The notes under the pieces are model-generated. The model saw nothing but the letters and a program-made list of their open reading frames with translations. It was not told the origin of the DNA and searched no databases. From IMG/VR virus record IMGVR_UViG_3300042923_000524, positions 73,948 to 137,947 of that record: a stretch of DNA of 64,000 nt. One strand, given 5' to 3'. Below, piece after piece: positions 21,962-37,661 of this stretch; position 1 is the first letter of the stretch, and each line of letters begins with the position of its first letter. Position numbers and translations under genes: made by a program. Origin of the DNA: a virus.

Positions 21962-22454
21962 AAACACTATAACAGCCGAGGTATTTTAAACCATGAAGTT
22001 TTAAAAAGTTACTATAACAGTCGACACAAAATAGTTGACGAAGTTTTCTTATAACAGAAAGCACTTTTTACTTCATGGATTTTAACTATAACAGCAAGTT
22101 TAAAATGGTTGACCGACTTTTGTAAATAATATATAAAAGATTGGTATAAAAGTTACTAAGACTTGACACAATATAACTAAATACAAATATAAAATTTATT
22201 TTAAAAAAGCATTGACAAAACTTTTCTATGTATGGTAAAATAAGTATAACAGGTAAACGAAAAATAAATATATTGGAGGGTTTGAATATGGAATTAACTA
22301 AACAAGAAATACAATCAAGGATTGAGAAAATAAGCAAACTTAAAGAAACTGAACAAGATATTCAAAAATTAAAAATCATCAATCAAGCAGTAAAAGATTT
22401 AAGTAGTTTATTATAAAAAGCCAATCAAAGACGTATTCAGTTGAAATTTAAAAT

Positions 22455-27321: not shown

Positions 27322-27412
27322 TGTTATATTTAGCACTTTACAACATTATCCAACATATGATATATTAAATACAAATATAAAATTAATATAATAATAAAAG
27401 GGATGTGAAACT

Positions 27413-29238: not shown

Positions 29239-29530
29239 TCTCATCCAATTTCTCATTTGGTTAGCATTTTGAAAGGAGATTAATATGTTCGATTTTATAG
29301 CATGGTTATTTTTTCATATTTGTAAAATAGTATTTTTACCAGTGTTTATGCTAATATTCTTTATAAAACATTTAGTATATGCACTAGGTAAAACTTTGGA
29401 AGATTGTAGTCATATATTATTGGCTAAGTTTCCAGAAAATAATTAAATACTAATATAAAATTTATATAAAAAATATGTTGACAGGTTTAGAAATATTTGA
29501 TAAGATTGGTTTAAGATATTAAATAATATT

Positions 29531-32683: not shown

Positions 32684-33020
32684 AAAGAAGATTTTAAAGA
32701 TATATAATAATTATTTAACAACATTAAAGGAGGAATGAAGATGGTTCAATATATATGGGGCGTTATGGCAATTTGCAGTATTACATGGATATTATATTTA
32801 ACTTTAAAATATAGAAAGTGTATACCTAATATAGTAGCATTGGCAATTAATTTACAATCTTTATTATTGTTGGTCATAGTTATTGGCAATATCTATTCAA
32901 GATAATTAGTTACAATAAATTATAAAAATAAATATAAAATTTATTTGAAATGCATATTGCATTTGTTTCCGACATATAATATAATAAGCATAATAACAAA
33001 TATAAAAATTATATAAAGGA

Positions 33021-33689
33021 GTGGTAATTGAAATGACAACATGCATTCAAAACATTAATAGTCACACTACATACGATAAACCAATAAACACACTAATCAA
33101 CGCAGCACAAAAATTATTAGAGGTACGGAAAGGTGATTTGATATTTGTAGACTTTGACCAACTAATAAAAAGTGGTAGAGACCATAGTATACAATCGAAA
33201 CCTAGACCAGCGGTAGTTTTAAGCAATAACGTTGGAAACAAGTTTTCACCTACTATTTGGGTGGCAACATTAACTTCTAATCTTAACAAAAATAAACTAC
33301 CAACACATGTAAAAGTATCTGAAGAAACAGGACTTAGATTTGATTCGTTGGTTTTAGTAGAACAGGTATTCACAATTGACAAAAAACTTATATTATCAAA
33401 AGTGGGGAAATGTTCAGCACATATAATGGAGCAAATTGACACAGCAGTTAAAATTCAAGCAGGTACAATTGATTTAGAGTATATAGAAGATACAGTTAAT
33501 TGGATTAATAAAGTAGAGTGCGAAGCTCGAATAAATGGGTTTGACCCAGAGGATGCAAGATTACACACTAGACTAGTTAAGGAATTGCAATCTTATTGTA
33601 ATCAATATGGATATGATTATACTAAGGTATTAAAAGAAAAAACATTTATAAAAGTCTCCGTGGACAATAGAAAACAAAATGCAATGTAA
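33021..33689 (+). CDS. MazF/PemK (NdoA-like) endoribonuclease toxin with N- and C-terminal extensions
   Basis: KGDLIFVDF, SKPRPAVVLSNNVGNKFSPT, TLTS, DSLVLVEQVFTIDK; catalytic R and T present. Confidence 0.88.
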   Translation: MVIEMTTCIQNINSHTTYDKPINTLINAAQKLLEVRKGDLIFVDFDQLIKSGRDHSIQSKPRPAVVLSNNVGNKFSPTIWVATLTSNLNKNKLPTHVKVSEETGLRFDSLVLVEQVFTIDKKLILSKVGKCSAHIMEQIDTAVKIQAGTIDLEYIEDTVNWINKVECEARINGFDPEDARLHTRLVKELQSYCNQYGYDYTKVLKEKTFIKVSVDNRKQNAM

Positions 33690-33698
33690 AATATAAAA

Positions 33699-34358
33699 AT
33701 GGAGGACGGCATGATGAACAATAATTTTGTAGGGGAACAGAATGAGGTTAGAACTTTTATAGATAAAAGTAAATTTAATGAAGCAATTTTTAAATGTAAA
33801 ACAGTATTAGAAACATTAAACGATAATTATATCGAAGATAATCACAACAAATGGTTTTTTAATCTAAGAATTGCAATATGTTATAGAAAAAAAGGTCAAT
33901 TTAAAAAAGCATTAAATTATGTATTTGAAAGTAAAAACTACACAAATGATTTAAAAGAGCATATGGAATGTAATTGGGTTTTAGGAAATTGTTATTACTC
34001 TATGAAGTTATATAAAAAAGCTACACTATTTTTTAGACAATGCAGTGACTACTTTACAAACAACAACATGGAAGATGAACGTATTCATATGGATTTCAAC
34101 ATTGCAAAAATTGAAAATGACGATGTAAAAATTAATAGACTTTTGATTGAAGCTTATAATATGGTAAATATCGATGCCGATTCTCTAAGTAATGCAGAGT
34201 GGTTTTTCAACAACGCTTATGAAACCCTCTGCGAAATATACATAGATAGAAATCAATTAGAAATTTTTGAAGAAACTATTGTTAAAATTAAAGATAGAAA
34301 TATTGTTGATGATTTACGAAATAGAATGCAAGTGGTGAATATCACTAACATTTTATAA
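33699..34358 (+). CDS. TPR-like peptide receptor (RRNPP-like, no HTH)
   Basis: LRIAICYRKKGQFKKALNY, VLGNCYYSMKLYKKATLFF repeats; directly precedes a propeptide. Confidence 0.7.
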   Translation: MEDGMMNNNFVGEQNEVRTFIDKSKFNEAIFKCKTVLETLNDNYIEDNHNKWFFNLRIAICYRKKGQFKKALNYVFESKNYTNDLKEHMECNWVLGNCYYSMKLYKKATLFFRQCSDYFTNNNMEDERIHMDFNIAKIENDDVKINRLLIEAYNMVNIDADSLSNAEWFFNNAYETLCEIYIDRNQLEIFEETIVKIKDRNIVDDLRNRMQVVNITNIL

Positions 34359-34380
34359 TATAAAACAAGGAGGAAAAAGA

Positions 34381-34527
34381 ATGAAAAAAATTGCATTGTT
34401 TCTCACAACAGTTGCGGTACTTGCGATGTTGGTTGGAGGTATGGTTTTTGCTTCTGACGTTACAGACCCAAAAGTAGCTAAACCAGTGGTAGTGAGTCCT
34501 AATTCTGACGTTACAGACCCAAGATAA
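34381..34527 (+). CDS. 48-aa secreted signalling propeptide (AimP/Phr-like; not in ORF track)
   Basis: MKKIALFLTTVAVLAMLVGGMVFA-SDVTDPK-VAKPVVVSPN-SDVTDPR; AGGAGG RBS; 20-bp DNA repeat at 34452 and 34503. Confidence 0.85.
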   Translation: MKKIALFLTTVAVLAMLVGGMVFASDVTDPKVAKPVVVSPNSDVTDPR

Positions 34528-34539
34528 TTAATAAAACAA

Positions 34540-34558
34540 GAGGGGTGAAATGCCCCTC
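34540..34558 (+). terminator. hairpin after propeptide
   Basis: gaggggtgaaatgcccctc. Confidence 0.6.
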
Positions 34559-34595
34559 AAACAAAAAACTACAATAAAAATGAGGTGACAACATT

Positions 34596-34946
34596 ATGAT
34601 AGACCAAAACAAAGTAAAAAATCTATGTGAAAAATATAAAATCAACTACAAAATACATCCTAATAATATCTATATGGAAACTCCATTAAATACTTGGATA
34701 TGTGAAGATAAGGATACTCACTATCGCCTTAAACATAAAAATAAAGGTGTCTGTAAACATACGATGCATATGCACGATAGAAAATTTGAAAATGTAAATG
34801 AAGTATTAGAATATATACATACTCATGACACAAAGACAATATTTGACCGTAGAAGAAGTAATGAGAGAAGATTAGATAGGTTATTTGAATCTATATCAAT
34901 ACATAAAAAATCAAATAAGAAAATAAATAAATCAATTAGTATATAA
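34596..34946 (+). CDS. hypothetical protein
   Basis: RBS; His-rich. Confidence 0.65.
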   Translation: MIDQNKVKNLCEKYKINYKIHPNNIYMETPLNTWICEDKDTHYRLKHKNKGVCKHTMHMHDRKFENVNEVLEYIHTHDTKTIFDRRRSNERRLDRLFESISIHKKSNKKINKSISI

Positions 34947-35078
34947 ATAGATTAACATAAATAATGAATATAAATATTTTTCATGATTCACACATACATA
35001 TCAGTATAATTACTTGACACCAAGGATATAATTATATTAAGATATAAATAAGAATGAATATAAAAGGATGTGTGAGTT

Positions 35079-36389
35079 ATGAAAATAGGAAAAGATAGAG
35101 ATTTACTAGAGAAAGAATTAGCAAAAATATTCGTAAAGTATAATTTAGATAATAATGTAATCAATAAAATTAAAGAAGAATTTATATCAAGAGGGGTATC
35201 TTCAGGAGAATTCTTGTCTATTATAGATGGCAAAATTCAGATTGAAACAATCCCTCTTAATATGCTTTGTCTTTTAACAGAGTTGTTTTATAAAGAAACT
35301 ACAGAGCAAAATATAAAACCAGAAACTTATTTTACTGAACAAGAAATTAACACAGCTAAGAATTTTAGACGAGAGTCAGAAGAACAATCTAAATATCCAT
35401 TAGTATTTGAAAATGTCATGAAGATTGGTGATGACCACTATGTAACATATAAAACAGCTCAAGAAGTTGCTGGTTACTATGCAAAGAATTTAATTGTTTA
35501 TAACAAACAAACTCAAAGAAATGCAAAGTACAGTGAGTATCAAGATAAAATTGTTGAAATGATAAGTATAAATAAATCTTCTATTTCTGATATTGCAAAA
35601 GATATTGTTGAGGGCAGACAAATTACAAACTTTATCACTTTTAATATTCTTCAAAATGGCGAAGAGAATTTTGAATATGATGCTAAAAATAAAACTTTAA
35701 CTGTATTTGAAGGTGAGATTGATATACTTGACGGTTTTCATAGGTCAATGGGAATTCTCTCAGCAGTACAGAAAGAGCCTAATGTAAAATATATCACTGG
35801 AATTAATATAGTGAATTGGGATATTGAAAAATCAAGAAGATTTATTGTACAGGAAGATAAGAGAAATAAGATTAATGCTTCTCATGTAAAATCACTTAAT
35901 CCAGATAGATATGAAAACATGATTATTAAAAAACTAAATGAGAGTAGTTCAAGTGATTTAAAAGGCAAAATTACTACAGATAATTTATTTATAAGAAAAC
36001 ATAAAGCTTTAACAACATATGATGTTATTAATAATACTATTCAAAAAGAATATAAAGACATTAAAACCAATAGAGATGCTTCTTTAATTGCTGAATGGTT
36101 AATTGAATTCTTTAATGAATTAATTGGTTTGTATCCAACTGAGTTTTTAACTGAAATTGAATCTACTAAGGAAACTTCATTTATTAACAATGAGAATATG
36201 TTCGCAGGTTATATTTCACTTTCAAAAGAATTACAGAATGTTAGCAATTGGAGACAAAAACTACAGGAAGTGATGAGTAAAATTGATTTTAGCGTTAATA
36301 ATTCTAAGTGGGAAAGTCTTAAATCTGCAACAGAATTAAACAAGAGATTATTAAAGAATATATCTAATTATTTTAGAGAGATTGTTTAG
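35079..36389 (+). CDS. SPbeta YopQ-like DGQHR/ParB-fold protein
   Basis: IDILDGFHR motif; size and position directly upstream of a YopR-like gene. Confidence 0.65.
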   Translation: MKIGKDRDLLEKELAKIFVKYNLDNNVINKIKEEFISRGVSSGEFLSIIDGKIQIETIPLNMLCLLTELFYKETTEQNIKPETYFTEQEINTAKNFRRESEEQSKYPLVFENVMKIGDDHYVTYKTAQEVAGYYAKNLIVYNKQTQRNAKYSEYQDKIVEMISINKSSISDIAKDIVEGRQITNFITFNILQNGEENFEYDAKNKTLTVFEGEIDILDGFHRSMGILSAVQKEPNVKYITGINIVNWDIEKSRRFIVQEDKRNKINASHVKSLNPDRYENMIIKKLNESSSSDLKGKITTDNLFIRKHKALTTYDVINNTIQKEYKDIKTNRDASLIAEWLIEFFNELIGLYPTEFLTEIESTKETSFINNENMFAGYISLSKELQNVSNWRQKLQEVMSKIDFSVNNSKWESLKSATELNKRLLKNISNYFREIV

Positions 36390-36418: not shown

Positions 36419-37384
36419 TTGAAACATTTTATTATGTATAATCCAGAATTAAAAAATGTTTATCTTAATACTATTGACAACGAAGGAACTAGAGAAAATA
36501 TTGGATATACTTTTCAAAAGGCTAGAATACTAGAAGATGAAAAAGGAAAAGATATATGTCATTTTAATTTTGATGAATTAGGTGAATTATGGAGTAGCTT
36601 CAGAGCAAAAAGTTTTGCTGCCATTACTACTAAAGTTAGTATTATAGTTAAGTATATTGACTTTTGTATTGATAAAGGATTGGCTGATGTAAACTACAAT
36701 TGGGCAAAGATGTACTTTAATGAAGATGGATTAAGACCATATGTAAGCAAAGTTGCTATAGGTAATAAAATAATTGACAAAGAAACTTTAGAAGATATAA
36801 TTGATTTTTGTGCTAACGCTCAAGATGCTGTAATCTTTGCATTATTATTTGAAGGTGTAAAGGGTAGACCAATACAAGAAAATGCCTTTGAAGAAGTTAG
36901 GAATCTTAGAATGGTTGATTGTAATACTGATACTAATGATATTATACTAAGACAAGATGATGGTAAAACAAGAGTTATTCAAATATCTGAAAGAACTATG
37001 AATTTAATAGTAGATGCTTATAATCAACAAACGTATTTAAGAAAAAATGGCGAATCAACCGCAAAACTTAAAGAGATAGAAATGATTGATACAGGTTATG
37101 TTTTAAAATTAGGTGATATAGGCAAGAATTCCAATTCGAGTGAAGATAGAATAAGTCATCAAGTTTTATTTAGAAGACTAAAGAATATTGCAAAAGCATA
37201 TGGAAATAGTTTTTTAACACCTACTAATATTTACATGAGTGGAATGGTTGACTATGCTCAAAGACTGCAAACTGAAAAAGGTGTAGAATTAGACAATAAT
37301 GATTATATTCATATATGTGAGAAATATGGAATAGACCCTAAAAGATGGTATAAGATAAAAGTGGAGATTAAGCAGTATCTATAA
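36419..37384 (+). CDS. SPbeta YopR/MrpR-like master repressor (inactive tyrosine-recombinase fold)
   Basis: MYNPELKNVYL, GKDICHF, LLFEGVKG, YLRKNG, FLTPTNIYMSG; lacks the RHR catalytic set. Confidence 0.8.
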   Translation: MKHFIMYNPELKNVYLNTIDNEGTRENIGYTFQKARILEDEKGKDICHFNFDELGELWSSFRAKSFAAITTKVSIIVKYIDFCIDKGLADVNYNWAKMYFNEDGLRPYVSKVAIGNKIIDKETLEDIIDFCANAQDAVIFALLFEGVKGRPIQENAFEEVRNLRMVDCNTDTNDIILRQDDGKTRVIQISERTMNLIVDAYNQQTYLRKNGESTAKLKEIEMIDTGYVLKLGDIGKNSNSSEDRISHQVLFRRLKNIAKAYGNSFLTPTNIYMSGMVDYAQRLQTEKGVELDNNDYIHICEKYGIDPKRWYKIKVEIKQYL

Positions 37385-37661
37385 TTTAAAAATAAAGTAG
37401 TTTTATTACTACTTTAACAAATACAAATATAAAATTTATTTAATAAAAGTGTTGACAAAGGCAAAAAGTGGTAGTAGTATTATAGATAAGAGGTGAGTAT
37501 ATGAAACAATATGGATATATGATTCTTGTTTTAGGTATTATTGGAGTGGCTATAGCAGTGGTAATAAGATTTATAAAATAAGCTAACCAAATTGAGATTT
37601 GGTCGTGATTTTAGAAAAACTAGCCGCTGCGAGAGTAGGGTTGTAGAAAAGGAGAATAAAT

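Follow-up and report, generated by a model that had tools for sequence, protein, structure and literature searches.

Can a phage couple a secreted peptide signal directly to a toxin ribonuclease of its own? The question is raised by three consecutive genes in IMG/VR virus record IMGVR_UViG_3300042923_000524, which is 137,947 bp long, has direct terminal repeats, and was analyzed here over its bases 73948-137947 (64,000 nucleotides, called the window below). The DNA has a G+C content of about 27%, and nearly every gene lies on the + strand. The three genes encode a MazF-like endoribonuclease with terminal extensions, a protein built of tetratricopeptide repeats (TPRs), and a small propeptide that carries two copies of a heptapeptide; they stand upstream of genes resembling yopQ and yopR of phage SPbeta. 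An earlier note on this DNA had proposed that the TPR protein is a peptide-switched antitoxin of MazF and that the operon occupies the place that aimR and aimP hold in the arbitrium system.

The precedent for a link between phage communication and MazF comes from phage phi3T, in which the host MazF is inactivated by AimX and YosL and promotes lysogeny when free (PMC10769878); for this phage the earlier note was correct in stating that arbitrium acts on the host MazEF system. More recent work indicates that AimX acts as an antirepressor in the majority of arbitrium systems (bioRxiv 10.1101/2025.11.23.689978), so that even Bacillus phages do not generally use the MazF route. To our knowledge, arbitrium has been found only in Bacillus-type phages, with a receptor that acts on DNA or RNA, and its reach to the host MazF is known only in phi3T, where it is indirect.

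The answer reached below is that this one may. The operon probably encodes a new variant of RRNPP-like signalling that lacks a helix-turn-helix (HTH) domain and acts on or beside the phage MazF. The narrower reading, in which the three genes serve the phage for peptide communication, with no DNA-binding output and with MazF as the likeliest target, comes close to an even chance without quite reaching it. No description of a phage MazF-TPR-propeptide module was found in the literature, and what would be new is RRNPP-type, arbitrium-like signalling with a toxin-linked output.

A three-gene operon

The features on which the argument depends are the following.

33033-33689, + strand: extended MazF/PemK endoribonuclease, 218 amino acids (aa) (PF02452, E 9e-25; phrog_1936, "MazF-like growth inhibitor", E 2e-27)
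33477-33686, + strand: C-terminal extension of MazF (aa 149-218), predicted to be helical, with a conserved ...ELxxYCxQYxYxY... tail; strongly conserved in 9 proteins
33711-34358, + strand: TPR-only protein, 215 aa, candidate intracellular peptide receptor (TPR_1 above cut-off; about 5 TPR hairpins plus capping helices)
34381-34527, + strand: 48-aa propeptide gene with ribosome-binding site AAGGAGGA, a Sec-type signal and two heptapeptide copies

All three genes are on the + strand and follow one another within window positions 33033-34527. The intergenic gaps are 21 and 22 nt, the second placing the propeptide start 22 nt 3' of the TPR stop codon; each gene has a strong ribosome-binding site of its own, and a hairpin is found only 3' of the third gene. 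We consider it very likely that the three genes are genuine and are transcribed together. The mazF open reading frame (ORF) opens at a GTG at 33021 (33021-33689), and the likelier start is the ATG at 33033 behind AAAGGAG, as in a related 130-kb phage (IMGVR_UViG_3300031578_000004, locus L001). The TPR frame similarly opens at 33699, with the likely start at ATG 33711 after GGAGGA.

A candidate receptor and its putative signal

In the propeptide, a predicted signal (aa 1-24, 34381-34452) begins with MKK, continues with a roughly 20-aa hydrophobic core and ends in VFA|S; directly after ...VFA comes SDVTDPK (34453-34473), followed by a 10-aa spacer and by SDVTDPR (34504-34524), which forms the C-terminus before the stop codon. 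Both heptapeptides named in the earlier note are thus borne out, and at the DNA level the two copies share an exact 20-nt repeat (34452-34471 and 34503-34522). Among the 962 small ORFs of the whole 138-kb phage (25-90 aa, six frames), no other has an internal repeat of at least 5 aa, and this one is also among the 23 that pass a crude signal-peptide rule. Its match among the PHROGs is weak (phrog_17545, E 0.001).

That this small ORF is a genuine gene whose function is linked to the TPR protein is argued most strongly, among the new evidence, by a distant relative. Locus L085, on a 167-kb contig of a Tissierellia metagenome-assembled genome, encodes an extended MazF that is 43% identical and a TPR protein that is 35-36% identical to those of the window. 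Next comes a 49-aa ORF with a strong ribosome-binding site, a signal peptide, and the heptapeptides SEPEDPG and SEPEDPI, whose DNA contains an exact 21-nt repeat; beyond it lie a hairpin and then YopQ and YopR. The design of signal, heptapeptide, spacer and heptapeptide is kept between the two loci, as is S-[D/E]-x-x-D-P, while the remaining letters differ. Because the design is kept while the motif changes along with the receptor, as it does in cognate receptor-pheromone pairs, the comparison argues for a functional tie and supports the receptor-pheromone reading of the earlier note.

The TPR protein scores 31.4 bits against TPR_1 (cut-off 27.8). The earlier note had described a 219-aa TPR protein without a DNA-binding domain; the likely start shortens it to 215 aa, and the second part of the description stands, with no HTH or other DNA-binding family matched at E <= 0.1. 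A first AlphaFold2 model from the single sequence, with a predicted local distance difference test (pLDDT) score of 40, was replaced by one built on a 21-sequence alignment (pLDDT 94.8), in which there are 11 helices, all TPR-like, with TPRs from helix 2 onward. Foldseek and VIA-align gave full-length matches of this model to peptide-binding TPR domains, including those of LGN (Z 17.1), PlcR-PapR (Z 16.6) and the phi105 Rap protein (Z 15.9), with further matches to the pLS20 Rap protein, RapH and RapI. The modelled fold is compatible with a peptide receptor, though no proof of one. Pfam, NCBIfam and PHROGs gave no match of the protein to the Rap, NprR, PlcR, PrgX, Rgg or AimR families.

Relatives of the TPR protein are rare. 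A single close relative was found among 5.8 billion proteins, and a search of 1.8 billion representatives returned a small family of TPR-only proteins of about 200-225 aa. No protein in which MazF and the TPR part are fused occurred among these matches or among the loci read. No relatives were found in phage and plasmid collections, IMG/VR yielded only L001, and the ESM Atlas only generic TPR clusters; among about 800 genomes sampled from the class and phylum, the module occurs only in the Tissierellia metagenome-assembled genome.

The RRNPP signature calls for an adjacent, Sec-secreted propeptide of 10-100 aa and a TPR receptor of 250-500 aa (PMC10075063). The window has the small propeptide, the adjacency and the TPR protein, and its propeptide is probably Sec-secreted, judging from the predicted signal. 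Because the receptor falls outside 250-500 aa, automated RRNPP detectors would skip the pair. On balance, we think it somewhat the better supposition that the TPR protein and the peptide are a receptor-signal pair.

An extended MazF without MazE

The first gene encodes a MazF whose core is of the ordinary kind. The PemK_toxin profile (PF02452) matches it with 87.5 bits (cut-off 23.1) over profile positions 2-107 of 109, and the core (aa 31-148) aligns to the MazF proteins of B. anthracis and B. subtilis (4hke, 4mdx) with E of about 1e-21. The catalytic Arg and Thr of the solved Bacillus MazF structures correspond in the alignment to R58 and T81, both of them invariant in 9 family members; in B. 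subtilis MazF we take the catalytic pair to be R25/T48 (4MDX numbering). The intact catalytic residues and the C-terminal extension of about 70 aa (aa 149-218) that had been noticed earlier are thus both confirmed, and there is in addition a conserved N-terminal extension of about 30 aa (aa 1-30).

This is the sole MazF in the whole record, and it is not accompanied by MazE. The absence of a MazE-like antitoxin, first noticed for the vicinity, extends to the entire 138-kb record, where AbrB-fold MazE (PF04014) has 0 matches and a hidden Markov model (HMM) of ribbon-helix-helix (RHH) MazE from related hosts has a single match (E 0.012), 29 kb off and without Pfam support. The ORFs upstream of mazF are unrelated to MazE, so that the toxin-antitoxin adjacency of a type II MazEF system is lacking.

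The idea that the C-terminal extension might itself be a fused MazE-like antitoxin was rejected, with an hhalign probability of 0.2% against host MazE. Depletion of UACAU, the B. subtilis MazF site, was likewise dropped as a line of evidence when per-gene counts proved to be within expectation; yopQ and yopR together have 1 site versus about 5 expected, a marginal deficit, and the phage MazF may cut at other sequences than that of B. subtilis. Two other extended MazF proteins, from MT839623 (L116 1005-1565) and Subdoligranulum plasmid OY725857 (L132 3483-4013), were discarded as members of the same kind: their C-terminal tails are unrelated and Cys-rich, and no TPR gene is present. These tails look like zinc fingers, and the genes are followed by small HTH/excisionase-like ORFs and integrases.

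The extension and the TPR gene seem to travel together

Evidence connecting MazF with the TPR protein comes from gene neighbourhoods. Four independent loci with this type of extension could be read, namely the window, L001, L085 and L006, the last a 1.8-kb contig that breaks off within a TPR gene, so that only its beginning is present after the extended MazF. In L001, the closest relative, MazF is 89%, the TPR protein 67%, YopQ 46% and YopR 40% identical to the window proteins. An HMM of the C-terminal extension matches only these four among all loci fetched, and a TPR gene lies directly downstream in each of them; at about 76 ordinary MazF loci, none has a neighbour of the TPR family.

The second line of evidence is co-variation. 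Three more pairs of an extended MazF and a TPR protein are likely (P0008/P0013, P0009/P0028 and P0071/P0015), each matched through a common source and contigs of equal size (10,935, 5,870 and 22,113 bases). Over six pairs, three of them inferred in this way and their pairwise comparisons not independent, the identities of extension and TPR protein run in parallel (r 0.83), and those of MazF core and TPR protein do not (r 0.31). One pair, compared with the window, has a core that is 72% identical, an extension that is 34% identical and a TPR protein that is 29% identical. The extension and the TPR protein therefore seem to travel together as a cassette, and the link between MazF and the TPR protein that the earlier note had drawn from one locus now has these comparisons behind it.

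A possible mechanism

The mechanism that we favour begins with a 48-aa precursor that would be exported by Sec and cut to heptapeptides of the S[DE]xxDP type, two per precursor. The heptapeptides would be taken up again by the cell and bind to the 215-aa TPR protein on its concave side, in the manner known from RRNPP receptors. Because the TPR protein has no HTH, it would signal by protein contact, as Rap proteins do, and its most likely target would be the co-transcribed MazF, reached via the C-terminal extension. That its output goes to MazF by this route is possible, at a little less than an even chance. Peptide occupancy would then shift the amount of active MazF RNase and bias the adjacent YopQ/YopR lysis-lysogeny switch.

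In its full form this mechanism, which would make the module a communication system of a new class, has the minimal, HTH-less TPR protein docking on the C-terminal extension, the secreted two-copy heptapeptide setting release or restraint, phage density feeding through RNA cleavage into the lysis-lysogeny decision, and the receptor-extension cassette being swapped between phages as new "pherotypes"; taken all together, these steps are rather unlikely each to be right. The direction of the switch favoured by analogy with phi3T is that the apo-TPR protein would restrain MazF and the peptide-bound form would release it at high phage density, with MazF favouring lysogeny, and this particular direction is doubtful.

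Several observations weigh against the mechanism. The closest relative, L001, keeps MazF and the TPR protein without a peptide gene, and the comparison of peptide genes covers only two loci. At 215-219 aa, the TPR protein lies below every validated RRNPP receptor (285-473 aa; PMC10075063), and its structural matches are generic, with LGN and kinesin light chain scoring equal to RRNPP receptors. Linked recombination alone could give the co-variation, because the extension is the DNA nearest to the TPR gene. Finally, Clostridium phage c-st and plasmid p1BKT015925 have an extended MazF without a TPR gene, so that the TPR protein cannot be a universal antitoxin of MazF.

Alternative explanations

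The c-st and p1BKT015925 loci are also the starting point for the best surviving alternative, in which the TPR protein and the propeptide are a true Rap-Phr-like pair whose target is something other than MazF (YopQ/YopR, a neighbouring ORF called ORF116 below, or a host regulator), and the extended MazF is a separate, fixed part of the lysogeny module, kept in check by host MazE, at the level of transcription or through the extensions that it carries. In c-st the order is CST027 (extended MazF, 220 aa), CST028, CST029 (YopQ) and CST030 (YopR), with no TPR and no propeptide gene; the CST027 tail is homologous to the C-terminal extension (99.5% hhalign probability, core and tail taken together), and CST028 (218 aa) is unrelated to the TPR family. 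In p1BKT015925 the extended MazF is followed by a 450-bp gap and then by yopQ/yopR. The conserved core of these loci is thus an extended MazF next to a YopQ/YopR switch, to which a TPR gene with or without a peptide is one of several downstream options, and the persistence of extended MazF without the TPR protein means that the latter is more aptly regarded as an input to regulation than as an antidote that MazF cannot do without. The c-st-type MazF proteins are distant, at about 29% identity, and their control may differ. We know of no functional study of the c-st and p1BKT015925 genes, which are annotated only.

A tiny ORF lies just 3' of the extended MazF gene in both replicons (L130 3152-3229 in c-st, L133 4186-4269 in p1BKT015925), with a common motif NRHPSxRQNI. 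Either a conserved micro-protein or a nucleotide element may lie behind it, and it might regulate MazF locally where the TPR protein is absent.

An unlinked target would agree with general knowledge of Rap proteins, which act on unlinked targets, and YopQ and YopR come next in every locus with enough flank. Ordinary MazF was found in 324 of the 399 sampled genomes of the host class, with RHH MazE adjacent in the loci inspected; host MazE could therefore meet the phage MazF core, and cross-talk between the two is possible. A target other than MazF is harder to reconcile with a TPR gene directly downstream of this extension subtype in all four loci read, with an extension that follows TPR divergence when the core does not, and with genes that are translationally close within one operon. 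We regard this alternative as unlikely, if worth keeping in view.

A second alternative dispenses with the signal. Extended MazF and the TPR protein would be a plain toxin-antitoxin pair, or an abortive-infection or exclusion cassette, and the small ORF an unrelated secreted or membrane peptide. The MazF-TPR pair of L001, which persists without the peptide gene, is what this explanation would expect; at L001 8640-8705 the TPR frame is lengthened by about 16 codons into the same hairpin, which marks a clean deletion and a natural "signal-less" variant. The lack of MazE in the phage points the same way, as does locus L007 (198-578), where a 126-aa MazF, 60% identical to that of the window, stops just after the core and has neither extension nor adjacent TPR gene; it looks decayed and stands in another context, as expected of decay after loss of a partner. 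Against this, the L085 peptide gene keeps its position, strong ribosome-binding site, signal and two-copy design at a TPR identity of 35-36%, with its motif changed. Furthermore, PADLOC matched no defence family to any of the genes (NCBIfam was uninformative), and the autoregulation usual in type II antitoxins would call for a DNA-binding domain, which the TPR protein lacks. This second alternative appears improbable.

The weakest alternative, that the TPR protein activates MazF by docking, with or without peptide, and so frees an RNase held by an auto-inhibitory C-terminal extension or by host MazE, can draw on the strong conservation of the extensions and on p1BKT015925, where MazF may be self-restrained because it is tolerated without an adjacent partner, but the extension has no similarity to MazE and the idea is purely inferential, making it very improbable.

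Comparison with known systems

The favoured mechanism, a TPR protein that would sense the peptide and act on MazF, can be placed among related systems. Its likeness to arbitrium lies in a phage TPR protein followed directly by a propeptide gene with a predicted Sec-type signal, in the position upstream of the yopQ/yopR (sroE/F) repressor genes, and in the part that MazF plays in the lysis-lysogeny logic of phi3T. The differences are substantial. AimR controls the transcription of aimX and bears an HTH at its N-terminus, whereas the candidate receptor of 215 aa has no HTH or antiterminator function and no sequence similarity to AimR, and no equivalent of aimX was identified; moreover, the MazF here belongs to the phage itself, has extensions and shares the operon, and the peptide is a two-copy heptapeptide. 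The position claimed by the earlier note is correct insofar as the genes lie upstream of both YopQ and YopR, but it is analogous to that of aimR-aimP rather than identical, since the SPbeta order is aimR-aimP, yopM-N-O-P and yopQ-yopR, with four extra genes (yopM-yopP) before yopQ.

The Rap-Phr systems, among them those of phages phi3T and phi105 (PDB 8rsv, 8rte), also have an HTH-less TPR protein, a receptor that acts by protein contact as proposed here, and a propeptide gene immediately downstream. Their pheromones are duplicated within one propeptide, in keeping with the tandem pheromone copies described for phage Phr propeptides (PMC11343458). The window TPR model aligns over its full length to the Rap TPR domain (Z 15-16), but only to this part of Rap (chain residues 88-345 of 8rte), and no Rap family match is found by sequence. 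Rap is about 375 aa long, with an N-terminal three-helix bundle and 7 TPRs, against 215 aa for the window protein, and Rap targets Spo0F/ComA rather than a linked toxin. By analogy, the TPR protein would work most like a Rap-Phr receptor, though a much smaller one.

In PlcR-PapR (PDB 2qfc), the PlcR TPR domain (residues 69-286, without the HTH) superposes on the whole window model (Z 16.6 over 196 residues), and the two share five TPRs and a downstream peptide gene; PlcR is nevertheless a transcription factor with an N-terminal HTH, and sequence identity is only 11%. The MazF/EndoA (YdcE)-MazE/EndoAI system of Bacillus (4mdx, 4me7, 4hke) has an RNase core of about 40-45% identity and the same catalytic Arg/Thr, but the window MazF adds extensions of 30 aa (N-terminal) and 70 aa (C-terminal), has no upstream RHH MazE, is followed by a TPR protein and is phage-borne. 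Also close on the MazF side are CST027-CST029-CST030 of c-st and the p1BKT015925 locus, which share an extended MazF with a homologous C-tail upstream of yopQ/yopR and differ in lacking TPR and propeptide genes, having in their place an unrelated 218-aa protein and a 450-bp gap, respectively.

The surrounding lysogeny region

The remaining features of the region lie on either side of the three genes.

32922-33017, + strand: AT-rich intergenic region upstream of mazF, possible promoter/operator, with two copies of a CAAATATAAAATTTATTT-like 18-nt motif (32929-32946 and 32997-33014)
34540-34558, no strand assigned: GC-rich hairpin GAGGGG-N7-CCCCTC closing the three-gene unit; no U-tract on the + strand, terminator score only on the - strand
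34596-34946, + strand: ORF116, a Cys/His-rich protein, between the hairpin and the yopQ promoter
35014-35043, + strand: sigma-A-like promoter TTGACA-18-TAAGAT in front of yopQ
35079-36389, + strand: YopQ/DndB-like protein, 436 aa (PF14072, E 5e-9; phrog_5732, E 1e-88)
36419-37384, + strand: YopR/MrpR-like recombinase-fold repressor, 321 aa (MrpR_N_CB, E 1e-20; MrpR_C_cat, E 5e-14)

The region is a lysogeny module of the SPbeta kind, and the phage that carries it is one of low-GC anaerobes. The yopQ- and yopR-like genes lie 3' of the three-gene unit, in the same order in L001 and L085, and the YopR-like protein is 26% identical to SPbeta YopR over 98% of its length. The synteny that the earlier note had asked for was found for the MazF-TPR pair in L001, L006 and L085 and for the whole trio in L085, with L001 lacking the peptide gene. 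A hairpin occupies the equivalent place in L001 and L085. The yopQ promoter has a counterpart at L085 5911-5940, with identical hexamers and the same 18-nt spacing before yopQ, even though YopQ is only 37% identical between the two phages.

ORF116 matches no family in Pfam, PHROGs, NCBIfam or PADLOC. Its homologue in L001 (8763-9131) is 66% identical, and it is absent from L085; it is placed roughly where SPbeta has aimX and yopM-P.

The CAAATATAAAATTTATTT-like 18-nt motif occurs 17 times in the window versus 3.6 expected, a number reached in 0 of 100 shuffles. An exact third copy lies just 3' of yopR (37424-37441), and other sites are at 22184-22201, 27372-27389 and 29450-29467; the majority of copies are on the + strand, and those checked are intergenic and 5' of a start codon. 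This AT-rich motif may be a promoter or operator element of the phage.

Implications

The module suggests that large phages of anaerobic Bacillota have solved the same problem in a different way, by combining a MazF of their own with a stripped-down peptide sensor in one operon. If this is true, phage-phage communication would extend to Clostridia-type hosts, and the module would provide a first example of a TPR adaptor by which a quorum peptide gates a toxin RNase. RRNPP detectors that require receptors of 250-500 aa would then be missing a whole size class, and the "MazF-like growth inhibitor" long annotated next to yopQ/yopR in c-st-type phages would gain a testable function.

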